Shown: positions 15,451 to 46,451, counted from the stretch's first letter. The stretch is 64,000 nucleotides of DNA from Dehalococcoidia bacterium (GCA_963666115.2 CAXXET010000001.1:68553-132552), one strand, 5' to 3'. The notes: generated by a model from the sequence alone, not told the origin. Translations and numbers: made by a program.

Positions 15451-15484
15451 ATGTCCGGGTGTTCCAGAACCGCCGGCGCCTGTC

Positions 15485-24939: not shown

Positions 24940-25016
24940 TGGTGGGCGGCGAGGGTCTCGAACCCCCGGCCTTCTGCGTGTAAAGCAGACGCTCTAACCA
25001 ACTGAGCTAGCCGCCC
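24940..25016 (-). tRNA. tRNA-Val(TAC)
   Basis: GGGCGGCTAGCTCAG...TCTGC-TTTACAC-GCAGA...GTTCGAG...CCA. Confidence 0.96.
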
Positions 25017-25027
25017 ACGGGGGCGAA

Positions 25028-25105
25028 TGGCGCGCTTGGCGGGACTCGAACCCACGGCCTCAGCCTCCGCAGGGCTGCGCTCTATCCAGACTGAGCTACA
25101 AGCGC
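25028..25105 (-). tRNA. tRNA-Arg(GCG)
   Basis: GCGCTTGTAGCTCAG...CAGCC-CTGCGGA-GGCTG...GTTCGAGTCC...GCCA. Confidence 0.94.
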
Positions 25106-25154
25106 GTGTCACAACAACGCGGCGTCTTTGACCGCCGTTCGTCCGGCCTGTCGT

Positions 25155-25241
25155 TGGTGCCGAGGGAGAGATTTGAACTCTCACGCCCGCTAGGGGCACT
25201 GCGCCCTGAACGCAGCGCGTCTGCCGTTCCGCCACCTCGGC
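25155..25241 (-). tRNA. tRNA-Leu(CAG)
   Basis: GCCGAGGTGGCGGAA...CTGCG-TTCAGGG-CGCAG, long variable arm, CCA end. Confidence 0.96.
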
Positions 25242-28499: not shown

Positions 28500-29476
28500 T
28501 CCCCAATCCCGAACAGCCGCGCCGCGTTACCGCCCAAAATCGCGTCGCGGTCGGCCTCAGGCAGGTCAAGCTCCGTCACGTCCGCTTTCATGGGCGGAAT
28601 CGTCGTATACGGATAGTCCGTGCCGAACATGATCATGTCGTTCCCCATCAACTCGCGGGCGAACATGATGGCCGGACGCAGCCGCGAAACGGTGTCGATG
28701 TGCACCTTCTTGAAATACTCCCACGGGCCCTTGTCGTTCTCGCCCCAGTGGCCGGCGCGCGGCCCGCCCGTGCGATTCAGCCGCCCCATGAGGAAGGGCA
28801 GGGTGCTGCCGAGGTGGCACAGAACCCATTGCAGGTTGGGGTATTTCTCCATGACGCCGCTGAGGATGATGCGCATCATGGCGGCGGACGAGTCGAAGAG
28901 GAATCCCATGTTGACAGCCATCGTCCAGCCCTCGAGGTGATGCGCCATGACCGGCCAGCTTGGGTGGATCATCATCACAACGCCCAACTCTTCCGCCCGC
29001 TCGTAGATCGGCCACAGGTCCGGCTCATGGAGCTGCTTGCCTGCCACGTTTGAGGTCAGCATCATGCTGCGGATGCCGAGGTCGTTCACGGCGCGGTCCA
29101 GTTCCTTTACCGCCGCGTCCGCGTTGAGCAGCGGCAGAGTTCCCATGCCGACGAACCGGTCAGGGTTCTCCTTTTGAATCTGCGCGATGCCCTCATTGGC
29201 GGCTGCGGCAAGCTCCACGTTGAGCACGGGGTCGTCCGCGACCTCGCCGGCGGGGACGATGCAGCTCATCACGTGCATGTCCACGCCCGCCTCGTCCATG
29301 TCATTGACGCGCGTCTCCAGGCGGAACATGCCGGCGGGCATCGTGTACGTGTCCATGTCCGAGACGTGGAAGAGGATGTCGTCGCCGCTCCGCTCCATGT
29401 AGGGGAACGTCCTGCGGTTCAACAGCAGGTTGATGTATTCGGGAACGGCAAAATGATTGTGCGTATCGATGTGCAT
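28496..29476 (-). CDS. Amidohydrolase_2 (ACMSD-like) metalloenzyme
   Basis: IDTHNH, IHP, CHLG, FGTDYP. Confidence 0.9.
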   Translation of the reverse strand: MHIDTHNHFAVPEYINLLLNRRTFPYMERSGDDILFHVSDMDTYTMPAGMFRLETRVNDMDEAGVDMHVMSCIVPAGEVADDPVLNVELAAAANEGIAQIQKENPDRFVGMGTLPLLNADAAVKELDRAVNDLGIRSMMLTSNVAGKQLHEPDLWPIYERAEELGVVMMIHPSWPVMAHHLEGWTMAVNMGFLFDSSAAMMRIILSGVMEKYPNLQWVLCHLGSTLPFLMGRLNRTGGPRAGHWGENDKGPWEYFKKVHIDTVSRLRPAIMFARELMGNDMIMFGTDYPYTTIPPMKADVTELDLPEADRDAILGGNAARLFGIGE

Positions 29477-31410: not shown

Positions 31411-31490
31411 GATTCGCCCCCCAGTGCCGCTCAAGGAATCAGGGCGTATTTTACTGCGAACGGGAGGGCGCTGACGCAATTCGCTTCACT

Positions 31491-32342
31491 TCAGCGACCG
31501 GATTGCTCTCCAATAGAGCGGAGCAGCGCGAGCGCCAGCCCCGAAACGTCCGCCTGGATTTCGTCATTAGGTTCGCCGGTTATGAAGCACGCCGCGGCAA
31601 CTGGTCCAGGAGAATCGAGTCCGCTGAAATCTCTTTCGATGACGGCAAGCGCCTGATCAAGTGTTGGGTTCGGCATGAGCGATTCCAGGCGGTTCGCCAC
31701 GACCGGGAGGCCCAACCCTCTCCATACATAGTAAAGGTCGTAGGCGTCCTTGGGCGCGGTTCTGTTGCCAAAGGCGAGCGCTTTGAGCACCGTGAATGCG
31801 CCCGGCCCGCATACGGGGATGGTTCTTGTGGCTCGCGCCCCGTCCGGGGTAGCGTCGGTTACTTCTATCCGTCGGTGATCCGTGAATGCCAGTTCCAAGC
31901 CGGGAGTGATGACGGCGCCGAAGTCGTGTTCAAGCGGCCGAATCGTGCCTGCTCGATCTGCGTCATCGATGGGAGGAATGAGGAAATCGATCGTAACTGG
32001 ACGGTCCATCGTGACTGTCCAACGTTGCAGCACCCGATTGCCCTGATCATTGACGTCCTGTTCGAAGCCTGCGTCTCTCAGCCGTGCTGCTGCCTCTCGG
32101 TAGCGTTGGTCGTCCAACATGCCCACGGCTAATCCCAGGTCGAGGTCCATCGTGCCGCCGTAGGCGTCCAGGCCTTGCGGCCGGTCTTCCTGATCGATGA
32201 GCAAGTGAGGAACTAATCCGCCAACCACAACCATCTCATCGAGCAGATCGCCGAGCTTTGTGGCGATGTATAGGCACGTCTGCCGGACTCGGCTTAACTG
32301 GCCGTGTTCGTAGCCGCCTATCGTCTCCGGCTTACGTGTCAT
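31491..32342 (-). CDS. Nucleotidyltransferase, AbiEii-like toxin
   Basis: VVVGGL, TMDLDL, LKALAFGNR..KDAYDL. Confidence 0.8.
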   Translation of the reverse strand: MTRKPETIGGYEHGQLSRVRQTCLYIATKLGDLLDEMVVVGGLVPHLLIDQEDRPQGLDAYGGTMDLDLGLAVGMLDDQRYREAAARLRDAGFEQDVNDQGNRVLQRWTVTMDRPVTIDFLIPPIDDADRAGTIRPLEHDFGAVITPGLELAFTDHRRIEVTDATPDGARATRTIPVCGPGAFTVLKALAFGNRTAPKDAYDLYYVWRGLGLPVVANRLESLMPNPTLDQALAVIERDFSGLDSPGPVAAACFITGEPNDEIQADVSGLALALLRSIGEQSGR

Positions 32343-32349
32343 GGAGCGC

Positions 32350-33399
32350 TCACGTCCACAGAATCTTTCTCAACTCTGCGGCAGCCTCATTCGATCTTTC
32401 GGGATGATTCTTCAAGTCCAGATAGGCCTGGACGGGATGGACGCACCGGACACCGTCGACAATGGTCGCACCGGCAAAAACTCCTTCGTCGTTCGGAACG
32501 ACTAGCCACGTGTTTGCCCCTCGCGGCTCATCCCGAAATCCCAGGTCTCGCATCAAACCGGCCGACGGCAGCGATTCGAGATACACCGTAGACAAGCGGA
32601 ATCCCGCGTGGCGAGTGTAGAGCCAAGCGGCAGGCAGGGCAGTAAATGCGTAGTGGTCGCCGGTTCTCGACAGGGTCTCGGCCATCGAGCCAACCTGGGA
32701 GTCGCTGTCTGACGCCGCAACGTGGCCCCGGATAATCATGCTGTGACGGTCGAAGCGATACTCCTCCCGCCACGCATCCAGAAGGGTGTCCGGATCGCCG
32801 GCCCTGATGCCATGCTCCGTTCGTTCGGCGAGGCTACTTTCAAGGAGTTTGCCAACGATGCGGCTCGTATGTCCCTCGTTCAAGCCGCTTGATTGAGCCA
32901 GCGCGCGCTGTTGTATCGCCTTTCGAGGTTCGATCAGCAAGCGCCTTGCGACCCGCGACCCTTTCGCTCCAAATGCGGTTTCAGGGCGCCCCGGCCGCCG
33001 GAACTTGTTTGGATGGCCGAGATTCTGATAGAAGATGCCCGGCGCGATGATCCTGGCATTTCCCGACAAGTCCAGCCACTGTATATTGGCTTTCGCGGAC
33101 CACGCCTGGGCTTCAGGACTCATGTAGGGAACTGCAAGCAGGGGGATGTGTTTAGGCGGCACGTCAGGGTTCTTTGCTGAAAGACGCTGAGCGAGTCGGC
33201 GAAGGTTCCCGATGGATGGCGACGCCTTCCATTCCACGGCGAACGAGACTCCCCTGATTGAGATAAGCGCGTCCCAATCTCTACCGGACTTTCCCTCTCC
33301 CTGGTAGCGCACCTTTTCCTTGCCTATAGGAACCTCAAGGATTTCGGCGAGCCGATCTGCCACTCGCCGCAAAGGTATCGACATCCGCGCGTTCATCAT
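32350..33399 (-). CDS. AbiEi-like antitoxin/transcriptional regulator (wHTH)
   Basis: WLDLSGN, HTH region QRALAQSSGLNEGHTSRIV, LLDAW, HPVQAYLDL..HPERSNEAA. Confidence 0.8.
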   Translation of the reverse strand: MMNARMSIPLRRVADRLAEILEVPIGKEKVRYQGEGKSGRDWDALISIRGVSFAVEWKASPSIGNLRRLAQRLSAKNPDVPPKHIPLLAVPYMSPEAQAWSAKANIQWLDLSGNARIIAPGIFYQNLGHPNKFRRPGRPETAFGAKGSRVARRLLIEPRKAIQQRALAQSSGLNEGHTSRIVGKLLESSLAERTEHGIRAGDPDTLLDAWREEYRFDRHSMIIRGHVAASDSDSQVGSMAETLSRTGDHYAFTALPAAWLYTRHAGFRLSTVYLESLPSAGLMRDLGFRDEPRGANTWLVVPNDEGVFAGATIVDGVRCVHPVQAYLDLKNHPERSNEAAAELRKILWT

Positions 33400-33406
33400 G
33401 CTTGTC

Positions 33407-33456
33407 TTTATAACGCATCTTGCGCGTCTGCGCAAGTTTGTGTATAAGCGCAAGTT
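33407..33456 (-). promoter_or_regulatory. Sigma70-type promoter with overlapping inverted/direct repeats upstream of abiEi
   Basis: TTGCGC-17 nt-TATAAA, 7 nt before ATG 33399; CTTGCGC/GCGCAAG inverted repeat and a second GCGCAAGTT copy. Confidence 0.65.
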
Positions 33457-33617: not shown

Positions 33618-34175
33618 GTGGCTACTTTGAGCCGCTCTATTGGGTTGTCGCGTGAGCAGCGCATCACGGAGCTTGGGCGCGATCTGCTCAGCGCCGCCTA
33701 CCTGCGCGGCAGCTTCGTTCTCCGGTCCGGCCGCACCAGCAACTACTACTTCGACAAGTACCTCTTTGAGACCAAGCCCAGCATCCTGCGCCGCCTGGCC
33801 GCGTTCATGGCGGAGCTTGTGCCGCCCGGCACGGACCGCATCGCCGGGCCGGAGCTGGGCGCCGTGGCGCTCGCCACGGCGCTAAGCCTTGAGATGGGCC
33901 TGCCGTTCGTCATCGTCAAGAAAGAGCAGAAGGCATACGCGACGGGCAACGTGGTGGAGGGGGAGTTGTTCGCCGGAGAGCGCGTGCTGCTGGTGGAGGA
34001 CGTCGTGACGACGGGCAGCCAGGCCATCGAGGCGGGCATTGCGCTCCGTGCGGCAGGCGCGACGGTCTCCGATGTCCTTGTCGTCATTGACCGCGAGGAG
34101 GGAGCGCAGCAGATGCTGGCCGCCGCGGGCTACCAACTCCGCGCGCTGTTCCGCCGCCGCGACCTCGGAATCTGA
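33618..34175 (+). CDS. pyrE: Orotate phosphoribosyltransferase
   Basis: FVLRSGRTSNYYFDK, GPELGAV, LVEDVVTTG; AAGGAG RBS before GTG. Confidence 0.92.
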   Translation: MATLSRSIGLSREQRITELGRDLLSAAYLRGSFVLRSGRTSNYYFDKYLFETKPSILRRLAAFMAELVPPGTDRIAGPELGAVALATALSLEMGLPFVIVKKEQKAYATGNVVEGELFAGERVLLVEDVVTTGSQAIEAGIALRAAGATVSDVLVVIDREEGAQQMLAAAGYQLRALFRRRDLGI

Positions 34176-34187
34176 ATTTTTTTAAAC

Positions 34188-34227
34188 TTGACAACACGTC
34201 GTGTGAAGAACAACACAGACAACACGT
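34188..34227 (+). promoter_or_regulatory. Putative promoter/operator
   Basis: TTGACA at 34188; GACAACACGT twice (34190, 34218) and a third ACAACAC at 34210. Confidence 0.5.
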
Positions 34228-34233
34228 AGCGAT

Positions 34234-34728
34234 ATGAACCACGCAGAGATCGTTGACCTTTTGAAATCCACCGGCTGCCTTGTTGAGGGGCAGTTGGAGG
34301 ATTCCGACGACGGCCAAAGCGGCTGGGTTGCGGGGGCGATGGAGCCGCTCGCGAATCCCACCGCCGTTTCCGAACTGGCCGGATGCCTTTCGGACGCGCT
34401 CCCGTCTCCCGCGCTCGATCTCATCGCCGCGTGGCCGGGGCTGTCCAACGTCGTGCTGGCGTTCGCCGTCGGCGTGCGGGTAGACAAGCCTGTCGTCCTG
34501 CTGTCCGACGCGGAGGGACTGGTCACGGCTTCCGGCAACGTGGAACAGGGGCAGGGAGTCGCGCTGGTAGGCGTGACGCTCAGCGAGCGCGACGCCAATC
34601 TCGCCCGGGCATTCGTTGAGAACAGGGGCGGCAGACTGGCGGTCACCGCCTCTCTTGTCGGGGTGGGGCAGGTCGCAAACGAGCTTTCGCTCGTGTCCCT
34701 TGGGGTAGGGATCGATGGCAACGACTGA
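34234..34728 (+). CDS. Degenerate type I PRTase-fold (PyrE-like) protein
   Basis: Colinear with OPRTases, but the PRPP loop reads ALVGVTLSE. Confidence 0.65.
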   Translation: MNHAEIVDLLKSTGCLVEGQLEDSDDGQSGWVAGAMEPLANPTAVSELAGCLSDALPSPALDLIAAWPGLSNVVLAFAVGVRVDKPVVLLSDAEGLVTASGNVEQGQGVALVGVTLSERDANLARAFVENRGGRLAVTASLVGVGQVANELSLVSLGVGIDGND

Positions 34729-36049
34729 GCAAGAGCGGGACACGAAGCCGGTTGAGGCGCCGGAGCAGTCCGAGGCCGCAGCCGGCGAGTTGCGCGCCGA
34801 CCCCGGCCGCATCGCCGCCGACTTTGAACTCCTCTCCGCGATAGGCGCAGAGGGGGGCGGCGGCATCTCGCGCATCCCGTTTTCGCAGGAAGAGCGCGCC
34901 GCGCATGACCTTGTCTCAGGGTGGATGGTGGACCTGGACCTCTCCGTCCGCACGGACAGTTTCGGCAACACGATTGGCGTACTCCCCGGAACCGACCCGA
35001 CGCGCCCTGCCATCGGCTTCGGGTCACATCTTGATTCCGTGCCGCACGGCGGGCGATTCGACGGCGCCGTTGGCGTGCTGGACGCGCTGGAAGTCATCCG
35101 CATGTTCAAAGAGGCCGGCGTCCTGACTGCGCATCCGTTGATGGTGGTGGCGTTTGCGTCCGAGGAGGGCGCGCGATTTGGCGAGCCGTGCCTTGGCAGC
35201 AAGGCCGTCGCCGGCGTGCTGCAAGAGGCCGACCTTGAGCGGCTGCGCGACGCGAACGGCACGACGCTTGCACAGGCCATGCGCGCTGTGGACTTCGATC
35301 CGCACTCGCTGGCGCAGGCGCGGTGGAAGCCCAACACGCTCGCCGCCTTCCTCGAAGTGCATATCGAGCAGTCGCGGTCGCTGGAGGAGTCGGGGGAGCG
35401 CATCGGCCTGGTGGACGCCATCGCCGGGAATACACGCATCCGGCTCGTGATACGAGGGCGGCAGGACCACTCCGGCGGCACCCCCATGTCGCAGCGGCAG
35501 GACGCGCTGGCAGCAGCCGCAGAGGTCGTCCTGGCCGCTGAATCCATCGCCAATGAGCCGCGCCGCCGCGCCACAGTCGCAACAGTGGGACGCCTCCACG
35601 TCTTTCCCAACAGCATCACGACTATCCCGGGCGACGTGGAGTTCTATCTTGACGTGCGCGACGTGGACAGCGACCGCCAGCGGCTGACGACGAACGATAT
35701 TGTAACGCGCGCGGAGGAAACAGCTGCCCGCCGGGGCCTGCGCTTCGAGTGGGAGGTTGTGTCGGACACGTCACCCGTCGTGCTGCCCAAGTGGCTGCGC
35801 GATCTGACGACCGCCGCCACGGAGCGGCTGGGCGTGCCGCACCGCGTGACGACGAGCGGGGCAGGGCACGACGCCGGTATTCTCTCACGCGCCATCCCTG
35901 CCGCGATGCTCTTCGTGCCGAGCCGCGACGGCCTCAGCCACTGCCCCGAGGAGTGGACGAGCATGGACGACGTTGCCATCGGCGCGCAGGCGCTTGCGGA
36001 GAGCATCCGCGATATTGACACGTTCCTCACGAAAGAGGTTGCCGAATGA
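34715..36049 (+). CDS. M20 hydantoinase/carbamoylase-family Zn amidohydrolase
   Basis: GSHLDSVPHGGRFDG, SEEGARF, EVHIEQ, DHSGGTPM, SGAGHDA, SHCPEE. Confidence 0.92.
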   Translation: MATTEQERDTKPVEAPEQSEAAAGELRADPGRIAADFELLSAIGAEGGGGISRIPFSQEERAAHDLVSGWMVDLDLSVRTDSFGNTIGVLPGTDPTRPAIGFGSHLDSVPHGGRFDGAVGVLDALEVIRMFKEAGVLTAHPLMVVAFASEEGARFGEPCLGSKAVAGVLQEADLERLRDANGTTLAQAMRAVDFDPHSLAQARWKPNTLAAFLEVHIEQSRSLEESGERIGLVDAIAGNTRIRLVIRGRQDHSGGTPMSQRQDALAAAAEVVLAAESIANEPRRRATVATVGRLHVFPNSITTIPGDVEFYLDVRDVDSDRQRLTTNDIVTRAEETAARRGLRFEWEVVSDTSPVVLPKWLRDLTTAATERLGVPHRVTTSGAGHDAGILSRAIPAAMLFVPSRDGLSHCPEEWTSMDDVAIGAQALAESIRDIDTFLTKEVAE

Positions 36050-36963
36050 CCTCCGGGCTTATGGACGCCAACGGGACGATTCCCGTTTTCGCGGGCACGC
36101 ACGTCCCACAGCTCCGCCTGCCGTCCAGCGTGCGGCTTGAGGTGATGCGGACGAACGGCCGCCAGGCGCCCGCCGCGACATTCGTCGAAACGGAAATCAT
36201 CTCCAATGATGAGATCGCGCCGGAACACTACCTCATGCGGGTGCGCTCGGAGGCGTTGGCGAACGGCGAGCCGGGGCAATTCGGCGTCATTCGCCCCGGC
36301 ACGGCCACGGACGTCCACCCGCTCCTGCCGCGCCCCATGGCCGTCTACCGCTACGACAAAGACGCGGGCACGGCTGATTTCGTCTACCGCGTCGTGGGGT
36401 ACGGCACGGCTGCCATGGCGCAGCGCCGGGCGGGAGACATCGTGGAGATCGTCGGCCCCGTCGGCCGTCCTTTCCCCATCGACAAGACGACCAACGGCAT
36501 CCTGATCGTTGGGCGCGGCATCGGCGTGTGCTCCCTGACCACGCTCATCGACGAGGCCAGGCAGCGGAGCATCGAGGTCTACGCCGTTCTGAGCGGGCGC
36601 AACAAGGACGTTGTGCTCGGCAAGGACATCATCAAGCGGGCGCGGGGCAACGCGCTCTACGTGAATGACGTGGACGGCAGCAGCGACCTGCGGCACGTGG
36701 AGCCGTGGATCAGTGAGATCATCGAGTCCGGCCGCGTTCAGCAGTCATACGTCTGCGGCTCCAACCGCCTGATTGAACTGACAACCCGGCTCGGCGGTCC
36801 CGCAGGCGTGGAGACCTACGTCTCCCTGGAGGCGCACATGGCCTGCGGCCTCGGCTACTGCCATTCGTGCGCGACGGGGGCGTTTGGGGAATCGGCGGAG
36901 TCGCCGCTGGTGTGCCGCGACGGCCCCGTCTTTCGCTGCCACCCGGCAGGCGTTACCGTATAG
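36046..36963 (+). CDS. pyrK: Dihydroorotate dehydrogenase electron transfer subunit
   Basis: PGQF, LLPRP, GPVGRPF, MACGLGYCHSC...VCRDGPVF. Confidence 0.88.
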   Translation: MTSGLMDANGTIPVFAGTHVPQLRLPSSVRLEVMRTNGRQAPAATFVETEIISNDEIAPEHYLMRVRSEALANGEPGQFGVIRPGTATDVHPLLPRPMAVYRYDKDAGTADFVYRVVGYGTAAMAQRRAGDIVEIVGPVGRPFPIDKTTNGILIVGRGIGVCSLTTLIDEARQRSIEVYAVLSGRNKDVVLGKDIIKRARGNALYVNDVDGSSDLRHVEPWISEIIESGRVQQSYVCGSNRLIELTTRLGGPAGVETYVSLEAHMACGLGYCHSCATGAFGESAESPLVCRDGPVFRCHPAGVTV

Positions 36964-36966
36964 GCG

Positions 36967-37953
36967 ATGGTCGCACAGGACACTGAGACCGACAGCAGGC
37001 TGGGGGTTGACCTTGGCGCAGGGCTGACCCTCAAAAACCCGGTCATGCCCGCGTCCGGCTGTTTCGGGCCGGAAATGGGAACCCTGTTTGACCTTGGCAG
37101 GCTCGGCGCGCTGGTTCCCAAAACGATCTTCTACGGCGAGCGCTCCGGCAATCCCGCCCCCCGCACCGCCGAATCCCCCGCCGGAATGTTGAACTCCATC
37201 GGCATCCCGTCGCGCGGCGTCGAGAATTTTTTGACCGACCTCCTGCCCCGGTACACACAATACGATGCGCCCGTCATTGTCAGCATCGGCGGGCTTGGCA
37301 TTGAGGAGTACGACCGCCTTGCCGAGCGGCTGAACGGCGAGCCGGGCGTGGCGGGCCTCGAGGTCAATATCTCGTGTCCGAACCTTGAGGCGGGCGGCAT
37401 GGAGATCGGCGCGAGCCCGGCCAATGTTGAGCGTGTTGTGCGGGGCGTGTCCGATCGTTTCGACGGCCCGGTTATCGCCAAGCTCACGCCGAACATCACG
37501 TCCATCACGGACATCGCCAAGGCATCCGAGCAGGGCGGCGCGACGGCCATCTCTGCCATCAACACGCTGTCCGGCATGGTCATTGACGTGGACAACCGCC
37601 GCACGGTGACGGGCACGATGACAGGCGGCGTCTCCGGCCCCGCCATCCGCCCCATCGCCGTCCGCATGGTCTGGCAGGTGTGCAGCGCCGTCTCGATTCC
37701 CGTCGTCGGAATCGGCGGCATCACGTCCGCCCGCGACGCCCTGGAGTTCATCCTGGCAGGCGCGACTGCCGTCGGCGTCGGCACCGCCAACTTTACCCGC
37801 CCCACAACGATGCTTGACGTAATCGACGGCCTGCAAAAGTTCGTCGAACAGCGGAACCTGGACAGCATCATGGACGTCTGCGGAACCCTCGAAGAGGGCG
37901 CCCGCGTCGCCATAGAACCCCCGCGCCCAGCCACCCCCGTTGCGGGCCGCTGA
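36967..37953 (+). CDS. pyrD: Dihydroorotate dehydrogenase family 1B
   Basis: KNPVMPASG, GMLNSIG, EVNISCPN, KLTPN, INT, GGVSGPAIRP. Confidence 0.92.
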   Translation: MVAQDTETDSRLGVDLGAGLTLKNPVMPASGCFGPEMGTLFDLGRLGALVPKTIFYGERSGNPAPRTAESPAGMLNSIGIPSRGVENFLTDLLPRYTQYDAPVIVSIGGLGIEEYDRLAERLNGEPGVAGLEVNISCPNLEAGGMEIGASPANVERVVRGVSDRFDGPVIAKLTPNITSITDIAKASEQGGATAISAINTLSGMVIDVDNRRTVTGTMTGGVSGPAIRPIAVRMVWQVCSAVSIPVVGIGGITSARDALEFILAGATAVGVGTANFTRPTTMLDVIDGLQKFVEQRNLDSIMDVCGTLEEGARVAIEPPRPATPVAGR

Positions 37954-37970
37954 TCGGATAGCATAATTCC

Positions 37971-38414
37971 ATGAACATCACCGGCAGTCATAGTGTTCCT
38001 GCGACGCGTGAGCGTGTGTGGGAGTTGCTGCACGATCCCGGCGCGCTACAGCGGATGGTGCCGGGGTGCCAGACGCTGGACGCGGAATCGGCGACGAGGT
38101 TTTCCGCGACGCTTGCGGTTGGCGTCGGGCCGATCCGCGGGCGGTTCAGCGGCACGGTGGAGATCGAGGACATTGCCGCGAACGAGTCGTATAAGATGAC
38201 GCTGAGCGGGCAGGGGCCGACGGGGTTCGTGTCCGGCGAGGGCACGATCAACCTGACTGCGGATGGCGAGGGCACGCTTGTTGACGTTGAGGCGGACGCG
38301 CAGGTGGGCGGCACGCTCGCGCAGATCGGCTCGCGCATGATTCAGACCGCCGTGCGGATGCTCATGGGGCAGTTCTTCGAGGCTCTCTCACGGGAGGCTG
38401 CCGCGCAGGGATAG
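37971..38414 (+). CDS. coxG: CoxG family protein
   Basis: VWELLHDP...VPGC, VGGTLAQIGSRMI. Confidence 0.88.
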   Translation: MNITGSHSVPATRERVWELLHDPGALQRMVPGCQTLDAESATRFSATLAVGVGPIRGRFSGTVEIEDIAANESYKMTLSGQGPTGFVSGEGTINLTADGEGTLVDVEADAQVGGTLAQIGSRMIQTAVRMLMGQFFEALSREAAAQG

Positions 38415-38483
38415 TTGACCGTCCGCCCGTCGTGGGAATAGCATCGGCAGGGGTAGCACACGGAGGGGAGGGCCTGCTGCGCT

Positions 38484-38963
<480 letters not shown>

Positions 38964-38973
38964 GGCGAGCGCC

Positions 38974-41337
38974 ATGACGACGACAACCGCGCCCCGCCAG
39001 ATCGGCCAGTCGCCCCGCCGCAAGGAGGATGACCGCCTCCTGCGCGGGCAGGGCGCGTTCTCCGATGACATCAACATCCCCGGAACCGTGTGGGCACATT
39101 TCCTTCGCAGCCCGCATGCTCACGCCCGCATCGTCAATATCGATTCTTCAGCCGCGATGGCTCACCCGGGCGCGCTGCGCGTTCTCACCGGGGCGGACGT
39201 CCACCCCCGCTATCATCCCATTCCGCCCGTTCTCGCCGTGCGGGACGCGGAGAACCGCGACAACGAGGGCGGCGCGCCCGCGTTCACCCTCATCGCCACG
39301 GGCAAGGCCAAGTATGCCGGGGAGATCGTTGCCGTCGTCGTCGCGGAAACCCGTGAGGCGGCGCGCGACGCTGCCGACCTGGTGATGGTGGACTATGAGC
39401 CGCTGCCGGTGGCCAACACGCCCGAGCAGGCGATGGAGCCCGGCGCGCCGGAGGTGCATGACGGCCGCTCCAATGAGCAGGTGCGGTGGCTCAAGAGCAC
39501 GGAGAACGTGTCCAGCACGTTCGAGGACTCGGAGATCATCCTGCGGCATGATTTCAACAACCAGCGCATTCACGCCGTGCCCATGGAGCCGCGCGCCGGC
39601 ATTGCCCACTGGGACCCCGCCACGCGGTTCCTCACCATCTGGGCGTCGATCCAGGGCGCGCACGAGCTGCGAACGCAGATGGCCGAGGTGCTGGGACTGT
39701 CTCCCGATCAGATTCGCTCCATCGCGCCGGACGTGGGGGGCGGATTCGGCGCGAAGCACGGCGGGGAAGTGGAGTATTTCCTGCTGGCCATTGCGTCGAT
39801 GGAACTGGGACTGCCCGTCAAGTGGGCCGCGTCGCGCACGGAAGAGTTCCTTTCTCTCAGCCATGCGCGCGGGAAGACCTCGGAGTTTGAAGTGGCCGCG
39901 GACCGCGATGGCCGCGTCAAGGCTCTTCGCCTCCGCCACACCACTGACCTGGGCGCGTTTCCCAAGGGGGCAACCCCAATCGTCGCGCAAACATCCGCCA
40001 TCATCGCAACCGGCGTCTACGGCATTCGAGAGGCCGCGTTTGAAGTCCATTCCGTCTATACCAACCACACGCCGGAGGGCGCGTACCGCGGGTACGGCCG
40101 GCCTGAGGGCATCTACCTGATCGAACGGGCCATGGACATGCTGGCCCGCGACCTGGACATCGACCCTGCCGAAATCCGCAGGCGGAACATGATCCAACCG
40201 GAGGAGTTCCCGTATTACCGCACGCCCGGCGGAGACATCTATGACAGCGGCAACTACCCGGAGGCGTTGGAGCGGGCGCTGGAGGTCAGCGACTACGCAG
40301 GCTTGCGCGCGCGGCAGCGCGACATGCGCGCGGACGGGAAATACCTGGGAATCGGGCTTGCCTCCTGGGTCAAGACCGGCGGTTTTGGCCCGTCGTCGCT
40401 CGATCCCTCCTCGTCCATGCCGGAGTGGGCGCGCGTGAAAGTATCCCCCGCCGGCGCCGTGACCATCTACACCGGCTCGTCGCCGCACGGGCAGGGCAAC
40501 TACACCACGTACGCGCAGGTGGCGGCGGACACCTTGCACGTCCCGCTGGACGACATCTCCGTGACGCACGGCGACACGGCGACGGTCACGTACGGCATGG
40601 GCACCTTTGCCAGCCGCAACATGGTCGTGGGCGGCACAGCCGTCCTCCAGTCATCCCAGAAGGTTCTGGACAAGATGAGCCGGTTCGCGGCCCACGCGCT
40701 TGGCAGTGACCCGGACAGTGTGGAGTTCACGAACGGCGTGTTCAGCGCCAACGGCTCGTCCATCACGTTCCGCGAGGTTGCCGCCCGCATCAACCAGGTC
40801 TTGGAACGGCCTCAGGGCATGGAAATGGGCCTCGACGAGTCCTCGTTCTACCAGCCGACCCACCTCACCTTCAATTACGGAACCTACGTTGCCGTCGTTG
40901 AGGTTGACCCGGAAACGGGCGACGTTGACCTGCAGCAGTTGTTCTGCGTGGATGACCAGGGCGTCGTCGTTCATCCCGTCATCGTGGAAGGGCAGGTTCA
41001 CGGCGGCGCGGCGCAGGGAATCGGCCAGGCTCTGTACGAGGACATCGTGTACGACGAGAACGGGCAGTTGCTCAGCGGGTCATTGATGGACTACGCACTG
41101 CCGACGGCGGAAATGATGCCGGAGTTCATCTCCGAGTTCATCGAGACCCCGTCGCCCACGAACCCGCTCGGTGTCAAGGGCATGGGAGAGGGGCCGACGA
41201 CGGGCGCGCCGCCCGCCGTGGTCAACGCGGTTGTTGACGCGCTCGCCCCGTTCAACGTTCGTGACATCGCGATGCCGCTGACGCCGGAGCGCGTGTGGCG
41301 CGCCATCCAGGACGCGCAGAATGGAGACGAGTCATGA
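38974..41337 (+). CDS. Xanthine oxidase-family Mo large subunit 1 (form II CoxL-like)
   Basis: RSPHAHA, GGGFGAK, AYRGYGRPE, HGQG, EGQVHGG, KGMGE. Confidence 0.92.
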   Translation: MTTTTAPRQIGQSPRRKEDDRLLRGQGAFSDDINIPGTVWAHFLRSPHAHARIVNIDSSAAMAHPGALRVLTGADVHPRYHPIPPVLAVRDAENRDNEGGAPAFTLIATGKAKYAGEIVAVVVAETREAARDAADLVMVDYEPLPVANTPEQAMEPGAPEVHDGRSNEQVRWLKSTENVSSTFEDSEIILRHDFNNQRIHAVPMEPRAGIAHWDPATRFLTIWASIQGAHELRTQMAEVLGLSPDQIRSIAPDVGGGFGAKHGGEVEYFLLAIASMELGLPVKWAASRTEEFLSLSHARGKTSEFEVAADRDGRVKALRLRHTTDLGAFPKGATPIVAQTSAIIATGVYGIREAAFEVHSVYTNHTPEGAYRGYGRPEGIYLIERAMDMLARDLDIDPAEIRRRNMIQPEEFPYYRTPGGDIYDSGNYPEALERALEVSDYAGLRARQRDMRADGKYLGIGLASWVKTGGFGPSSLDPSSSMPEWARVKVSPAGAVTIYTGSSPHGQGNYTTYAQVAADTLHVPLDDISVTHGDTATVTYGMGTFASRNMVVGGTAVLQSSQKVLDKMSRFAAHALGSDPDSVEFTNGVFSANGSSITFREVAARINQVLERPQGMEMGLDESSFYQPTHLTFNYGTYVAVVEVDPETGDVDLQQLFCVDDQGVVVHPVIVEGQVHGGAAQGIGQALYEDIVYDENGQLLSGSLMDYALPTAEMMPEFISEFIETPSPTNPLGVKGMGEGPTTGAPPAVVNAVVDALAPFNVRDIAMPLTPERVWRAIQDAQNGDES

Positions 41338-42206
41338 TTCCAGGCGCTTTCGACTACGCCGCCCCCGATACGGTCGCCGAGGCGATAACTCTCCTCCAGC
41401 AGCGGCCCGGCGAGGGCAAGGTCATCGCCGGCGGGCAGAGCCTCCTGCCGATGATGAAGCTCCGCGTTGCCATGCCGGGCCTCGTGGTTGACCTCCGCAA
41501 GACGCGCGGCGAACTGTCCCATATCAGCACGGACGGCAGCAATCTGCGAATCGGCGCAATGACGAGCCATGCCCACGTCGCCGGTTCCGACGTGGTGCAG
41601 GACACGCTGCCGGTGTTGGCCGAAACGGCTGCGGAGATTGCGGACGTGCAGGTGCGAAATCTCGGTACCCTCGGCGGCAGCATTGCCCATGCCGACCCAG
41701 TTGCCGACTATCCCGCCACGCTGCTTGCGCTGGACGCGCAGACGGAGATTGCGGGGCCGAACGGAGCGCGGATCGTATCCGTTGATGAACTCATCATGGA
41801 TGCGTTCATTACCACGCTCGCCGAGGACGAAATCATCACCCAGATCATCATTCCCATTCCCGAGGGGGCCACGGGCGCGGCCTATCTGAAGTTCGCAAAC
41901 AAGGCGTCCCACTTTGCGATCGTGGGCGTGGCGGCGCTGGTTCGCCTTGATGACAGCGGCTATCTGTCCCGCGTATCCGTCGGCATAACCGGCGCGGCGT
42001 CGCGCGCGGCCCGCGCGACAGCCGTCGAAGAGACTTTGAGAGGGCAGGTGCCGACGGCGGACGCCATCGCGACAGCGTCCAATCTGGCTGCGGACGGGCT
42101 TGAGTGCATTGCAGACCTGCACGGCTCGCCCGAATACCGCGCGAATCTCTGCCGCGTCCTAACCCGCCGCGCCCTCACGCAAGCGGTGCAGCGCGCCCGG
42201 GAATAG
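41334..42206 (+). CDS. coxM: Mo-hydroxylase FAD medium subunit
   Basis: MIPGAFDY, AGGQSL, VRNLGTLGGS.AHADP. Confidence 0.93.
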   Translation: MIPGAFDYAAPDTVAEAITLLQQRPGEGKVIAGGQSLLPMMKLRVAMPGLVVDLRKTRGELSHISTDGSNLRIGAMTSHAHVAGSDVVQDTLPVLAETAAEIADVQVRNLGTLGGSIAHADPVADYPATLLALDAQTEIAGPNGARIVSVDELIMDAFITTLAEDEIITQIIIPIPEGATGAAYLKFANKASHFAIVGVAALVRLDDSGYLSRVSVGITGAASRAARATAVEETLRGQVPTADAIATASNLAADGLECIADLHGSPEYRANLCRVLTRRALTQAVQRARE

Positions 42207-42225
42207 CCGCGAGAAAGGACAAGCC

Positions 42226-44556
42226 ATGGCCACTGCCACCAAACTCGTCGGTCAGTCGGTCGCCCGCCGTGAAGACGAAAAACTCCTGCGCGGGCGCGGC
42301 GCGTTTGTCGAGGACATCGCTATCCCCGGCACACAATGGCTCTCCTTCGTCCGCAGCCCCCACGCCCACGCCCGCATCCGCAGCATCGATACCTCAGAAG
42401 CTCTTTCCATGCCAGGAGTCACCGCCGTCCTCACCGGCAAGGACGTCCACCCCCGCTATGGAACGAATCCAACCATCTCGCTCGCTTTCTATGACACGGA
42501 ATCCGCGCCCTACGACTTGATCGCCGTCAACGCAGCCCGCCACGTTGGAGAGGTCGTGGCAGTCGTCATTGCCGATTCACGGTACGGCGCGCGTGACGCC
42601 GCCGATCTCATCTACGTCGACTATGAGCCGCTGGATGCCGTCGTGGACGTTGAAACCGCCCTGCGGGATGACGCGCCAAAGGTCCATGAGGATAGGCCGA
42701 ACGGCGTCGTTTCGTGGCGCTACCGGGTCGGCAACGTCTCACAGGCATTTGAGGAGGCGCACGTTATTGTCCGGGAGCGCATTGTCAACCAGCGCATTCA
42801 CGGCGTGCCCATGGAGCCTCGCGCCGGGCTGGCGCACTGGGACGCGGTACAGGAGCGGATGAGCCTGTGGGCGACGGTGCAAACTCCCCACACGCTCCGC
42901 GACCATCTCGCCGAAATCATGGCATTGCCCCGGGAAAGCGTCCGCGTCGTCGCGCCCGACGTCGGCGGCGGTTTCGGCGTCAAGCACGAGGACCCGGAAT
43001 ACGCGCTCCTGTGCATCGCCTCAAAGGAGCTTGGCGCGCCCGTCAAGTGGGTCGCCACCCGCTCCGAAGACTTTTTGGCGATGCAGCAGGCGCGCGGCAA
43101 GACTTCGTACCTCGAAGTGTCCGCGGACGCCGACGGCAAACTCACCGGCCTCCGCGTCCGACACCTCCACGACCTCGGCGCCTACGCCAAGGGCCCGGAG
43201 CCGCAGCATTCAGCGTCCTCCGTCATGATCTCCACCGGCGTCTACAACATCCCCAACGTGGAGTTTGAGGCCCACAACGCCTACACCCACAAGACGCCGC
43301 AAGGCCCCTACCGCGGCGCGGGCAGGCCGGAGGGAATCCATCTCATCGAGCGCGGAATGGATCGGCTCGCCGGGGAGCTCGGCCTTGATCCCACCGAGAT
43401 CCGCCGCCGCAACTACCTCCCCCCGTTCGATCAGCCAACCCGCTCCGGCGGCGGCGACGTGTTCGACAGCGGCAACTACGAAGCATCCCTCAATCAGGTC
43501 ATGGAGTTGAGCGACTACCAACAGCTGCGCGAACAGCAAAGCGAGGCTCGAGCCGGGGGGCGTCACATGGGCATCGGCGTCGCCTCATGGGTCAAGACGG
43601 GCGGCTCCGGCCCCAGCCCGCTCGATCCCACCAGCAACCGCTACGAATGGGGCAGGGTGCGCGTTGACCGCGGCGGCAAGGTCACGCTGTTCACCGGCTC
43701 GTCGCCGCACGGGCAGGGCGGCGAGACCGTCTTTGCCCAGATCGTCGCCGATGTTTTCGGCATCTCAGATGGCGACGTGACCGTTCTCCACGGCGACACG
43801 GCCACGGTCGCGCACGGCGTGGGAACATACGGAAGCCGCGCGCTTGTGACGGGCGGCATGTCCGCCAAGATCGCTGCTGAGAAGGTGCGCGACAAGATGC
43901 TCAGGCTCGCCGCCCACATGATGGACTGCCAGCCCGACCAGGTGACGCTGGAAGGCGGCGTGTTCATTTGCGCGACGGACAGACAGCGCCACCTCGCGTT
44001 TGCCGAAGTCGCCCTGGCTGCCCATCAGAAGCTCGAGCGGCCCGATGACATGGAGTTCGGCCTGGATGAGGACTCGTTCTACCAGCCCAGCGGCCTGACC
44101 TATAACTTCGGCACGTACATTGCCGTGGTTGACGTGGACACGGAGACCGGCGACGTGGACCTGCAGCGCCTGTATACCGTCGATGACCAAGGCGTCATCG
44201 TGAATCCCATGACGGTAGAGGGGCAGGTGCATGGCGGCGCGACACAGGGGATCGGGCAGGCGTTGTACGAAATCTCTGAGTACGACCAAGCCGGCCAGAT
44301 CCTGAACGGCTCGCTGATGGACTACGCGATACCGACGGCGGAGATGACGCCGGAGTTCGTGGTGGCGTTCTCGGAGACGCCATCGCCGCTCAACTCGCTG
44401 GGCGTGAAGGGCATGGGCGAAGGCCCCACCACAGGCGCCCCCTCCGCTGTCGTCAACGCAGTAGTAGACGCCCTCTCCCCACTAGGCGTAACCCACATAG
44501 AAATGCCCCTAACCCCCGAACGAGTCTGGCGCGCCATCCAGGACACGCAGGGCTAA
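42226..44556 (+). CDS. Xanthine oxidase-family Mo large subunit 2 (form II CoxL-like)
   Basis: GGGFGVK, PYRGAGRPE, HGQG, KGMGE; paralogue of 38974-41337. Confidence 0.92.
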   Translation: MATATKLVGQSVARREDEKLLRGRGAFVEDIAIPGTQWLSFVRSPHAHARIRSIDTSEALSMPGVTAVLTGKDVHPRYGTNPTISLAFYDTESAPYDLIAVNAARHVGEVVAVVIADSRYGARDAADLIYVDYEPLDAVVDVETALRDDAPKVHEDRPNGVVSWRYRVGNVSQAFEEAHVIVRERIVNQRIHGVPMEPRAGLAHWDAVQERMSLWATVQTPHTLRDHLAEIMALPRESVRVVAPDVGGGFGVKHEDPEYALLCIASKELGAPVKWVATRSEDFLAMQQARGKTSYLEVSADADGKLTGLRVRHLHDLGAYAKGPEPQHSASSVMISTGVYNIPNVEFEAHNAYTHKTPQGPYRGAGRPEGIHLIERGMDRLAGELGLDPTEIRRRNYLPPFDQPTRSGGGDVFDSGNYEASLNQVMELSDYQQLREQQSEARAGGRHMGIGVASWVKTGGSGPSPLDPTSNRYEWGRVRVDRGGKVTLFTGSSPHGQGGETVFAQIVADVFGISDGDVTVLHGDTATVAHGVGTYGSRALVTGGMSAKIAAEKVRDKMLRLAAHMMDCQPDQVTLEGGVFICATDRQRHLAFAEVALAAHQKLERPDDMEFGLDEDSFYQPSGLTYNFGTYIAVVDVDTETGDVDLQRLYTVDDQGVIVNPMTVEGQVHGGATQGIGQALYEISEYDQAGQILNGSLMDYAIPTAEMTPEFVVAFSETPSPLNSLGVKGMGEGPTTGAPSAVVNAVVDALSPLGVTHIEMPLTPERVWRAIQDTQG

Positions 44557-44652: not shown

Positions 44653-45861
44653 ATGATGGATGGTACACCGCTGCTGCGGAGCATCCGCTTGGAGAATCTC
44701 CTATCCTTCGGCCCGGAAAGCTCTGAATTTCCCCTACGGCCACTAAATGTCCTGATCGGCCCGAATGCATCAGGCAAGTCTAATCTGCTGGATGCCGTGA
44801 GCCTCCTGGTAGCGATGCCAAATGACCTTCAGCAAGGAATACGCTCAGGAGGTGGCAGTAAAGACTGGCTATGGAAAGGGACGGGTGGCAGTCCAACTGC
44901 CACCATTGACGTCACAGTCCCCAATTTGCCTCCGCAAGTGATCCCGATACGCTACAAGATTTCCTTTACGGAGGCTGCGGGACGCTTTGACCTGGTTGAT
45001 GAGGCCATAGAGGGCGAGAGGCCAACGTCGTCCCAATTGCGTGAGCCATTCATTTACTACCGTTACCAAAATGGGAATCCGGCCATCAGCGTGATCGAGA
45101 CACTGCCGGACAATCGCAGGGAGAGGCAGTTGACCCGGGAGGATGTATCTGCCGACCAATCTATCCTCTCCCAGCGGAAGGACCCACTCGTTTATCCCGA
45201 GATAACGCACGTTGGTCGATTGTTCCAGGGGATCGCTTCGTATAGAGAATGGCAGATGTCTCGTCATTCACCTGCGCGGGCGCCTCAGCCGACTGATGGC
45301 CCACAGGGCGTCCTCGATCCTAGTGGTTCAAACCTTGCCTTGGTCCTGAGTGATCTGATGAACTACCCATCGGCAAAGGAAGAGATTCTTGAGCGAATGA
45401 GGAAGTTTTACCCCGCGTTTCGCGACCTAACTACCCCCGTGAACGCCGGCACAGTGCGCGTGTTTTTCCACGAAAATGATCTTCGGCAGGCGATACCGGC
45501 GTCACGGCTTTCCGATGGCAGTATGCGTTTTCTTTGCCTGTTGGCGATACTGTGCCACCCGAGCCCACCTCCAATTGTGTGTCTGGAAGAGCCGGAGATT
45601 GGACTGCATCCCGACGCCATCGCCGATTTGGCGGAGCTTCTCAAGAGCGCGGCTTCTCGGTGTCAACTATTCGTGACCACCCACTCAGACACTCTGATTG
45701 ATCACCTGTCCGACGTTTCCGATGCTGTAATCGTGTGCGAGAATGTCGGCGGCTCAACCCAATTGCGGCGCATGGACGCTGATTCTCTAAAACCGTGGCT
45801 CGAAGATTACTCGCTTGGAGAGCTGTGGAATCGAGGCAAGATTGGGGGCAATAGGTGGTGA
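44653..45861 (+). CDS. AAA_21/AAA_15-type ABC-like ATPase
   Basis: GPNASGKSN, LSDGS, LEEPEIGLHP, TTHS. Confidence 0.9.
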   Translation: MMDGTPLLRSIRLENLLSFGPESSEFPLRPLNVLIGPNASGKSNLLDAVSLLVAMPNDLQQGIRSGGGSKDWLWKGTGGSPTATIDVTVPNLPPQVIPIRYKISFTEAAGRFDLVDEAIEGERPTSSQLREPFIYYRYQNGNPAISVIETLPDNRRERQLTREDVSADQSILSQRKDPLVYPEITHVGRLFQGIASYREWQMSRHSPARAPQPTDGPQGVLDPSGSNLALVLSDLMNYPSAKEEILERMRKFYPAFRDLTTPVNAGTVRVFFHENDLRQAIPASRLSDGSMRFLCLLAILCHPSPPPIVCLEEPEIGLHPDAIADLAELLKSAASRCQLFVTTHSDTLIDHLSDVSDAVIVCENVGGSTQLRRMDADSLKPWLEDYSLGELWNRGKIGGNRW

Positions 45862-46451
45862 AGGTGACCATCTATGTTGAAGGCGGTGGCAACAGCAGAC
45901 TTGCCAGGGAGTGTGGCCAAGCATTCAGCCAATTCATTCGCCAGTCTGGTGTGCCAGGTGGCGCCTTTCAGATAGTTGCCAGTGGTAGCCGAGGCGAGGC
46001 CCGCAGAGACTTTGAGCGGGCGCTACGGCAATCGGAAGACGCGCTTCTTCTGGTCGATGCAGAAGGCCCGGTCTCGGCAGATAGCCCTTGGGACCATCTT
46101 CGGCAGTCCGACAACTGGGATCGCCCTCAACATGCGCGAGACGAAGATTGTCATCTCATGGTGCAGCTAATGGAATCGTGGTTCCTTGCAGATAAGGCTT
46201 CCGTGGAGACCTTCTATCGGCAGGGTTTCCGACTGTCGGCGCTGCCGGCAGAGAGCAATATTGAGTTAGTTGCGCGGGACGGCGTACTTCAAGCATTTCG
46301 TTCGGCATCAAGCAGCACTGGCAAGGGCGCCTACAACAAGGCCCGACATGCATTCAAGATTCTCGCCTTGATCGATCCCGCAAAGGTGCGCGATGCCTCA
46401 CCTTGGGCTAACCGTCTCCTTGAAACTCTCGCAAGCAAAACCGCCGTGTAG
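45858..46451 (+). CDS. DUF4276 family (TOPRIM-like) protein
   Basis: IYVEGG, LLVDAE, MVQLMESWFLAD, YNK; GTGA overlap with the ATPase. Confidence 0.82.
   Translation: MKVTIYVEGGGNSRLARECGQAFSQFIRQSGVPGGAFQIVASGSRGEARRDFERALRQSEDALLLVDAEGPVSADSPWDHLRQSDNWDRPQHARDEDCHLMVQLMESWFLADKASVETFYRQGFRLSALPAESNIELVARDGVLQAFRSASSSTGKGAYNKARHAFKILALIDPAKVRDASPWANRLLETLASKTAV

Follow-up and report, generated by a model that had tools for sequence, protein, structure and literature searches.

In a Dehalococcoidia genome, the pyrimidine genes pyrE, pyrK and pyrD share one co-oriented row with a gene for an M20-family ureidohydrolase (M20), a gene of degenerate phosphoribosyltransferase (PRTase) type (X) and, directly downstream, the cox genes of a molybdenum (Mo) hydroxylase with two large subunits (L1 and L2). 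This row raises the question whether all ten genes serve one pathway or whether two functional units stand side by side. The window, i.e., the whole stretch of 64,000 nucleotides that was analysed, corresponds to G000:C1:68553-132552 (G, C and L numbers are our own handles for genomes, contigs and loci), and the genome G000 comprises 2,067,757 bases in 9 contigs, is 100% complete and is 0.3% contaminated. A first-pass annotation, made from the window sequence alone, had proposed a single catabolic or salvage pathway for N-heterocycles. Our analysis led us to prefer, with less than even confidence, a reading in which the row consists of two units, a biosynthetic operon with a carbamoylase side branch and a neighbouring, separable Mo-hydroxylase. 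What remains of the earlier proposal is that M20 belongs to a conserved pyr module, which in four larger genomes is accompanied by a second dihydroorotate dehydrogenase (DHOD); what was given up is that the module is dedicated to catabolism, and its adjacency to the cox genes is a genus-level arrangement.

The ten genes fill 33618-44556, as determined by open reading frame (ORF) calls and by Pfam and NCBIfam searches, with start and stop codons checked, and the row is the same as that first described. The genes are as follows.

33618-34175, + strand: pyrE, orotate phosphoribosyltransferase (OPRT) of the E. coli/TIGR00336 type (TIGR00336, 134.2 bits; cut-off 106.8)
34234-34728, + strand: X, a 164-aa PRTase-fold protein without the phosphoribosyl pyrophosphate (PRPP)/acidic motif, a pseudo-OPRT (AlphaFold2 model, Foldseek, profile search)
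34715-36049, + strand: M20 ureidohydrolase of the hydantoinase/carbamoylase family (TIGR01879, 405.7 bits; cut-off 204)
36046-36963, + strand: pyrK-like FAD/NAD and [2Fe-2S] electron-transfer subunit of a class 1B DHOD, module type (PF10418, 38 bits)
36967-37953, + strand: pyrD, catalytic subunit of a class 1B DHOD (NF005574, 368.3 bits; cut-off 269)
37971-38414, + strand: coxG, SRPBCC accessory protein (PF06240, 97.7 bits)
38484-38963, + strand: coxS, [2Fe-2S] small subunit of a xanthine-oxidase-family hydroxylase (PF01799, 122.7 bits)
38974-41337, + strand: L1, molybdopterin large subunit between coxS and coxM (PF01315, PF02738, PF20256)
41334-42206, + strand: coxM, FAD-binding medium subunit (PF00941, PF03450)
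42226-44556, + strand: L2, second molybdopterin large subunit (PF01315, PF02738, PF20256)

The five genes pyrE-X-M20-pyrK-pyrD (33618-37953) form a single operon, unit 1, to whose end coxG may belong, and unit 2 is coxS-L1-coxM-L2 (38484-44556). X and M20 overlap by 14 nt, the X stop lying within the M20 start region, and M20 and pyrK overlap by 4 nt. Gaps of 3, 17 and 69 nt follow at pyrK-pyrD, pyrD-coxG and coxG-coxS, and in unit 2 there are a 10-nt gap (coxS-L1), a 4-nt overlap (L1-coxM) and a 19-nt gap (coxM-L2). The pyrE gene has a GTG start and is preceded by GGAAAGGAG. The CATAAT reported earlier just upstream of coxG is present, 4 nt before its ATG. In the promoter scan of the cluster, the only sigma-70-like match lay in the coxG-coxS gap, and one match against 2.4 expected by chance is not significant. 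At Rfam gathering thresholds, no riboswitch or attenuator was found in the cluster, three tRNAs being the only matches in the window. The 58-nt spacer between pyrE and X (34176-34233), which has no Rfam match, contains repeated ACAACAC words and the palindrome ACACGTCGTGT.

Copy number and typing of pyrE, pyrK and pyrD

In the whole genome, pyrE was the only TIGR00336 match above the cut-off and pyrD the only strong PF01180 match, i.e., they are the sole OPRT and the sole DHOD. Therefore, the late de novo steps towards uridine monophosphate (UMP) must pass through the window genes. The other pyr genes, which had been reported as missing from the cluster, are indeed elsewhere: pyrF maps to C2, pyrB adjoins prs on C9, and C7 carries the row pyrC-carA-(263 aa, no family)-carB-PyrK' (G000:C7:256372-263718; L047), after which no pyrD follows. 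This PyrK' is 39% identical to the canonical PyrK' of another Chloroflexota genome, G523, compared with 30% to the PyrK of its own module, suggesting that the lineage lost its canonical pyrD and now depends on the module. Apart from this orphan PyrK-like gene, the search for a second canonical pyrDK or pyrE in the genome returned nothing. The idea of a pyr set dedicated to catabolism was thus not borne out, since single-copy pyrE and pyrD in a 100%-complete genome with the other pyr genes scattered represent a housekeeping set.

PyrD passed the DHOD equivalog NF005574 at the score listed above but failed the PreA model NF006183 (157.7 bits; cut-off 335). Since the PreA cut-off was not reached, dihydropyrimidine dehydrogenase was rejected as an identity of PyrKD. 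PyrK exceeded the PF10418 threshold (38 versus 23.9 bits), and all NCBIfam PyrK equivalog models scored 88-130 bits, below their cut-offs of 219-314.

Conservation of the pyrE-X-M20-pyrK-pyrD module

M20 adjoins pyrK-pyrD in every one of the 21 genus genomes, as it does in the sister genus (G022). X was searched in a sample of 301 genomes of the class and in a sample of 401 genomes of the phylum. In the class sample, strong X matches were confined to the genus and to G049, which belongs to a different family and is the single representative of its order; the weaker matches scored like ordinary PRTases and were taken to be the putative Thermus-type PyrE of those genomes. The phylum sample added X in G586, G523, G407, G495, G621, G375 and G530. 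G644 was rejected as a carrier, its match being a true PyrE_Therm, and a narrower metagenome scan for X loci yielded a single, uninformative locus of 1,019 bp.

Besides the genus, the complete five-gene block was present in G022, G407, G495, G621, G375 and G530. The trio pyrE-X-M20 was present in G523, G586 and G049, and in the latter two the contig ends just after M20. The block or its pyrE-X-M20 core was therefore found in seven Chloroflexota families of several classes, nine lineages having been examined in all, and M20 is no stray gene, which counts in favour of the first-pass annotation. The X stop overlapped the M20 start in each case checked (the window and L054-L060). In a maximum-likelihood tree, the module PyrDs and those of a reduced sister genus, g3, formed one clade (support 100/99) apart from the canonical Chloroflexota PyrDs, and in a search of 61 relatives, only module-bearing genomes had an M20 ortholog that was 45% or more identical. 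Unit 1 is thus shown to be a coherent Chloroflexota module of long standing, with a PyrD lineage to itself.

In several module-bearing genomes, the module is not the only source of DHOD. A class 2 quinone DHOD was found besides the module in G407 and G621 (TIGR01036, 325 and 320 bits; cut-off 200), an additional canonical pyrB-pyrC-carA-carB-pyrD operon in G530, and a second, untyped PF01180 match in G495; the module PyrKD is thus a second set in these four larger genomes. In G523, a canonical row carA-carB-pyrK'-pyrD' was found, with the trio only at a separate site. The module pyrE was the only OPRT-like match in six of the seven module genomes from other classes that were searched (G407, G495, G621, G375, G530 and G586), the exception being G523. 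As a side observation, the class 2 DHOD gene of G407 (L062, C86) has catabolic-looking neighbours, namely genes for an asparaginase, an amidohydrolase, a luciferase-like monooxygenase, UbiD, an arylmalonate-decarboxylase-like protein and an NMT1-type binding protein, and that of G621 (L063, C18) adjoins a gene for an NMT1-type binding protein; neither lies in a pyr operon.

M20 was not found in the three g3 genomes searched (84-90% complete), and X was not found in G023, the one g3 genome searched for it. In G023 and G025, the g3 genomes where both pyrE and pyrD were found, the two genes lay on different contigs. Since these most reduced relatives are without M20 (and, in G023, without X), the X-M20 pair is probably accessory to UMP synthesis.

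X is a degenerate phosphoribosyltransferase

X had no sequence match in Pfam, NCBIfam or PDB, and BLASTP of X against PyrE gave an E value of 0.28, i.e., no kinship, which emerged only by fold and profile searches. The AlphaFold2 model, built with 11 orthologs, reached a pLDDT of 87.9 and a pTM of 0.84, and its top Foldseek matches were OPRT, adenine phosphoribosyltransferase (APRT) and PurR PRTases (E 2e-8; TM up to 0.73; probability 1.00 for OPRT/APRT). The profile search returned 679 representatives at E <= 1e-3, only 8 of them at E <= 1e-30. When 36 profile matches were scanned with Pfam, 18 distant ones (P0058-P0177) carried PF00156, including fusions with orotidine monophosphate (OMP) decarboxylase, and the other 18 had no passing Pfam family, two of them with weak sub-threshold matches. 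X could be aligned collinearly with Thermus-type PyrE-like PF00156 PRTases, the correspondence extending to a C-terminal CPxC motif, and, as judged from such sequence comparison, it is a descendant of the Thermus-type PyrE family.

At the position of the acidic PRPP motif (VxxVEDVxTTG type), X reads VALVGVTLSERD where true relatives have VVEDVLTTG, and the GHFxLSSGxHS segment and the flexible loop are degenerate as well. The C-terminal CPxC motif is kept in many X orthologs but lost in this X. The columns of X that do not vary between lineages are all Leu, Pro or Gly, and no polar residue is invariant. The first-pass call of a degenerate PRTase was therefore confirmed by the PRTase fold, the loss of the acidic motif and the lack of a PF00156 match. 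Within the genus, the dN/dS of X was 0.07-0.24 compared with 0.08-0.11 for M20. At greater depth X diverges much faster, its identity in L045 being 52% compared with 74-94% for its neighbours. Taken together, X reads as a pseudoenzyme and not as a pseudogene.

M20 is a putative carbamoyl-aspartate hydrolase

M20, the sole gene of its kind in the genome, scored about twice the cut-off of TIGR01879. Its best NCBIfam model was the subfamily NF006771 'allantoate amidohydrolase', which it passed (437.6 bits; cut-off 399). However, it remained below the AllC/allantoate amidohydrolase equivalogs (TIGR03176, 250.5 versus 597.75 bits; NF006775, 371.3 versus 479), and AllC was rejected as its identity. 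Allantoate specificity, which had been named beforehand as an observation that would speak against a single pathway, is accordingly not indicated by the equivalog TIGR03176. The nearest solved relative was 3n5f (3.5e-96), an L-carbamoylase from Geobacillus; ureidoglycolate and allantoate amidohydrolases ranked behind it. Orthologs in other lineages were 45-74% identical, with invariant His/Asp/Glu-Glu/His/Gln/Arg/His columns as candidate metal or ligand positions. We infer that M20 is a putative hydrolase of N-carbamoyl-L-aspartate or a close analogue.

Such hydrolysis is the ureidosuccinase reaction (EC 3.5.1.7), an activity known since the 1950s. In the literature outside subscription journals that our search covered, and within the portions of text accessible there, no paper was found that assigns a gene to the ureidosuccinase step, and none that describes an operon of this kind with carbamoylase, DHOD and OPRT.

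A different account of M20 and X, which we regard as doubtful, is that the genes keep incidental company. The operon would be plainly biosynthetic, M20 an unrelated ureidohydrolase that scavenges nitrogen from allantoate or a different N-carbamoyl amino acid, X what is left of a displaced Thermus-type PyrE, in slow decay and kept mainly for delivering ribosomes to M20, and the cox genes the next operon. The passed NF006771 model agrees with this account, as do the absence of an invariant polar residue in X and its faster divergence in L045; moreover, the ten large-subunit paralogs of the genome make cox neighbours common, and large CoxL expansions with unassigned substrates have been described in Chloroflexi, in the part of that paper available to us (Burgsdorf et al. 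2021, PMC8941161). However, the trio and the X/M20 overlap are kept across seven families and several classes, X has a confident fold and a low dN/dS, and close M20 orthologs occur only in module-bearing genomes.

The Mo-hydroxylase block

The architecture of unit 2 is completely of the CoxSML type: coxS carries PF01799, coxM carries PF00941 and PF03450, and both L1 and L2 have the hammerhead domain and two molybdenum cofactor-binding domains. With the CO-dehydrogenase model TIGR02416, L1 and L2 scored 614.6 and 604.6 bits, both below the cut-off of 991, and neither active-site loop (L1, AYRGYGR; L2, PYRGAGR) contains a Cys. Form I CO dehydrogenase is characterized by a Cys-containing active-site loop. 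Since neither the TIGR02416 cut-off was reached nor the loop Cys present, form I CO dehydrogenase was rejected, and by its domains and motifs unit 2 is shown as a predicted hydroxylase of the xanthine-oxidase family. The best solved relatives of L2 were the CoxL chain 8uem (567 bits) and quinoline 2-oxidoreductase 1t3q (507 bits). The dN/dS of L1 was 0.04-0.10.

L1 and L2 share 57% identity, and neither is more than 31% identical to any of the other eight paralogs of the genome. Altogether, G000 has 10 Mo-hydroxylase large subunits compared with three coxS and three coxM loci (C1, C6 and C7). These numbers fit the interpretation that L1 and L2 may be alternative catalytic subunits sharing one Fe-S and one FAD subunit. 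Most of the ten large-subunit genes have no coxS/coxM pair of their own, and on C6, coxM-coxS is directly followed by a TRZ/ATZ-type aminohydrolase gene.

Linkage between the module and Mo-hydroxylases

The first-pass annotation had proposed that L1 and L2 hydroxylate a pyrimidine-type heterocycle, e.g., a pyrimidine carboxylate, stepwise to orotate, which PyrE would then salvage or PyrKD would reduce, the second route leading via carbamoyl-aspartate to its degradation with the help of M20, so that all ten genes form one pathway. We consider this unlikely. The gene order speaks for it: the genes are co-oriented and tightly spaced, pyrD and coxG lie 17 nt apart, and cox genes stay next to the module in all informative loci of the genus. 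For this comparison, 18 loci around X were taken; three of them end before the far side of pyrD, leaving 15 informative loci (14 of the genus and one of the sister genus). Downstream of pyrD, cox genes were found in 14 of 14 genus loci and not in the sister genus locus. L2 was present in all 14 genus loci, and L1 lay between coxS and coxM in 11; in the other three, coxS-coxM-L2 stood without L1.

However, L1 is thus dispensable in three species, and in 4 of the 14 genus loci the junction is interrupted, in part by opposite-strand genes. In L029, an MmeI-type restriction-modification gene (13736-16600) lies between pyrD and coxG. Between coxG and coxS, L035 carries genes for major facilitator superfamily (MFS) and MgtE transporters on the opposite strand (14164-17629), and L037 (14167-16197) and L038 carry a 2.2-kb insert, in which an opposite-strand MFS gene is annotated in L037. 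The pyrD/coxG/coxS junction appears as an insertion hot spot within the genus. The attachment of coxG to either unit is loose, since it remains beside pyrD in three of these loci (L035, L037 and L038) and beside coxS in L029.

Furthermore, the L1/L2 block is unlinked in G022. There, coxG and coxS-L1-like (65%)-coxM lie 12.7 kb upstream of pyrE, with a PF01522 deacetylase gene and an amidase gene between coxG and coxS and a CoA-transferase gene after coxM, and the L2 ortholog (66%) is a solitary gene some 965 kb away. Synteny across seven families therefore holds for the pyr module, and only in this genus does the L1/L2 block come after pyrD. Two observations had been named in advance as jointly fatal to a single pathway, namely that pyrDK and pyrE exist in no other copy and that the cox block is unlinked in relatives: the copies are indeed the only ones, and the cox block is unlinked in G022 but adjacent in 14 genus loci.

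In two other families, the neighbours of the module include XDH-like (xanthine dehydrogenase-like) or CoxL-like Mo-hydroxylases not orthologous to L1/L2, TRZ/ATZ aminohydrolases, an IclR regulator and transporters. G375 has a co-directional array L-IclR-pyrE-X-M20-pyrK-pyrD-L-coxS-substrate-binding protein, with isochorismatase-family, MFS and coxM genes upstream; of the 14 L genes of this genome, 4 share a 20-kb stretch of that contig. At a distance of 3-5 kb downstream of the module, both G407 and G495 carry coxM, an L gene and a TRZ/ATZ aminohydrolase gene. G621 has two TRZ/ATZ aminohydrolases and ABC transporter genes flanking the module, and G530 has a Liv/Urt-type ABC transporter after pyrD. 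These arrangements favour the one-pathway proposal, as does the DHOD present elsewhere in four genomes, which frees the module PyrKD for reverse flux. Nevertheless, L1/L2 share no more than 29-31% identity with the flanking L genes of the other families, and both L genes of the G375 array are of the XDH/PucD type (PucD/XdhA-like). Hence no specific hydroxylase travels with the module, and any link concerns Mo-hydroxylases as a class and not L1/L2. In the fetched module loci of G621, G530, G523, G049 and G586, no Mo-hydroxylase was found, the downstream side of G049 and G586 ending with the contig. With ten large subunits in the genome, moreover, a Mo-hydroxylase neighbour is not rare. The unit 1-unit 2 adjacency is accordingly a genus-level arrangement, and a functional link is only suggestive.

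The TRZ/ATZ neighbours bear on a further alternative, in which the row follows the plan of reductive urate (2,8-dioxopurine) degradation: an XDH-family enzyme would modify the ring, PyrKD would moonlight in saturating it, an amidohydrolase would open it, and M20 would remove the ureido group. We regard this as quite improbable. According to the available part of the description, the reductive uric acid/2,8-dioxopurine cluster encodes XdhD, YgfK or UacX, SsnA, HyuA, YgeY, YgeW/UacY and YgeX; the steps from XdhD to YgeY proceed in the order given, UacX being of the DHO_dh family and YgeY an M20 enzyme, and SsnA occurs commonly among Chloroflexota (Li et al. 2025, PMC12507026). The TRZ/ATZ neighbours in G621, G407 and G495 gave partial SsnA-model scores of 171-212 bits, the neighbours in G375 are PucD/XdhA-like, and the same gene company has been described, in the portion seen of the source, for the DHOD-like family X1 (Barba et al. 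2013, PMC4016543). However, the module PyrD scores above the cut-off of the DHOD equivalog and is the DHOD on which G000 has to rely, the best SsnA-model match of the genome reached 162 bits compared with 455.5 and lay on another contig, with none in the window, no YgeY-type model was among the 20 NCBIfam families matched by M20, and no hydantoinase lies in the cluster. The adjacent amidohydrolases of the other genomes were also considered as the 'missing' dihydroorotase and rejected, as they are of the TRZ/ATZ type or dipeptidase-like.

Surroundings of the row

Upstream of pyrE, three ORFs of 667, 283 and 367 aa occupy 29476-33453 on the - strand and have no Pfam, NCBIfam or PADLOC match; the 667-aa ORF looks, from its sequence, like a multi-pass membrane protein. 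The three tRNA genes of the window form a cluster at 24943-25241 (- strand). Downstream of L2, genes for an AAA_21 ATPase and a DUF4276 protein (44653-46451, + strand) are a candidate defence pair, HEC-01A/B, in PADLOC (524 and 236 bits), and the GC content falls to 57.5% over this pair. The pair looks recently inserted, as L2 and ychF, between which it lies, directly adjoin each other in L043 and L045.

A two-unit interpretation and its weight

In the two-unit reading, M20, the reversible NAD-linked PyrKD and the unlinked PyrC would constitute a drain, or catabolic branch, of the operon, in which orotate and dihydroorotate, and dihydroorotate and carbamoyl-aspartate, would be interconverted and carbamoyl-aspartate hydrolysed to aspartate, NH3 and CO2. 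PyrE would be the salvage branch, and X a non-catalytic ligand-binding partner that sets the split between the two branches. It is possible that unit 2 hands a hydroxylated N-heterocycle over to unit 1.

Several observations weigh against separating a biosynthetic operon with a carbamoylase branch from an independent hydroxylase. The best NCBIfam model of M20 bears the allantoate name, and a carbamoyl-aspartate hydrolase co-expressed with the sole PyrE and PyrD would, if left uncontrolled, draw flux away from de novo synthesis. No dihydroorotase was found beside the module in any lineage examined. In this genome, no terminator-like site lies in the 17 nt between pyrD and coxG, so that read-through into the cox genes is possible. 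Among eight lineages, non-orthologous Mo-hydroxylases occurred within 5 kb of the module in three, compared with 0.62 expected (P(>=3)=0.018), and the adjacency of the module and Mo-hydroxylases may thus be more than incidental; this estimate is rough and post hoc, takes 17 kb per L locus and uses approximate locus counts, and the lineages are not fully independent, which also limits what it lends to the one-pathway proposal.

A bolder extension of the two-unit reading, which is speculative and which we would not expect to hold as a whole, describes the module as an undescribed, laterally mobile 'orotate node'. M20 would be the orphan ureidosuccinase, and X would sense orotate, OMP or PRPP and split the flux between salvage (PyrE) and degradation (PyrKD, PyrC and M20). 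Variable Mo-hydroxylases and aminohydrolases docked to the module, here the two-headed L1/L2, would channel N-heterocycles from the environment into it.

Should carbamoyl-aspartate be the substrate of M20, a gene would be at hand for a long-known enzyme activity, and a pyrimidine operon would prove to be built for two-way flux. The conserved dead OPRT, with its gene overlapping the start of the carbamoylase gene, makes a clean candidate for a new regulatory pseudoenzyme in nucleotide metabolism. The ratio of 10 large subunits to three coxS/coxM sets, with L1 and L2 sharing one of them, suggests a cheap widening of substrate range in streamlined bacteria, and such sharing bears on the many Chloroflexi CoxL paralogs whose substrates are unassigned, as far as the accessible text of PMC8941161 goes. 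For annotation, the cox block should not be labelled CO dehydrogenase, nor the cluster a dedicated catabolic island.

Comparison with known systems

The reductive urate cluster resembles the row in combining an XDH-family Mo enzyme, a DHO_dh-family flavoenzyme and an M20 ureido-cleaving enzyme, and TRZ/ATZ/SsnA-like amidohydrolases occur in the related Chloroflexota loci. Unlike in that cluster, PyrD is here a bona fide DHOD, SsnA, HyuA, YgeW and YgeX are lacking from the cluster, M20 falls into the carbamoylase (TIGR01879) branch, and L1 and L2 are CoxL-like and not XdhD-like.

PyrR and PurR are PRTase folds that bind ligands rather than acting mainly as enzymes. X differs from them in having no DNA-binding domain, and from many of its own orthologs in the loss of the C-terminal CPxC. 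It resembles them as a small PRTase fold without the catalytic motif inside a nucleotide-synthesis operon, and PurR of B. subtilis was among its Foldseek matches.

In the orotate fermentation of Clostridium oroticum, an NADH-orotate reductase, a dihydroorotase and ureidosuccinase (EC 3.5.1.7) act. The NAD-linked class 1B-type DHOD, the genomic dihydroorotase and the putative ureidohydrolase of G000 would give the same three steps, whereas the same genes here also serve biosynthesis and no dedicated dihydroorotase is linked to the module.

Unit 1 can also be compared with the Bacillus-type de novo pyrimidine operon, in which a class 1B DHOD (pyrK-pyrD) is combined with pyrE. Unlike in that operon, pyrE comes first here, a dead PRTase and M20 stand between pyrE and pyrK, pyrB, pyrC, carAB and pyrF are elsewhere, and the clade of the module PyrD is separate from that of the canonical Chloroflexota PyrD. 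Nevertheless, OPRT and PyrK/PyrD stand together as in Bacillus, here as the sole copies, and the pyrC-carA-carB-PyrK' remnant on C7 resembles the Bacillus-type operon.

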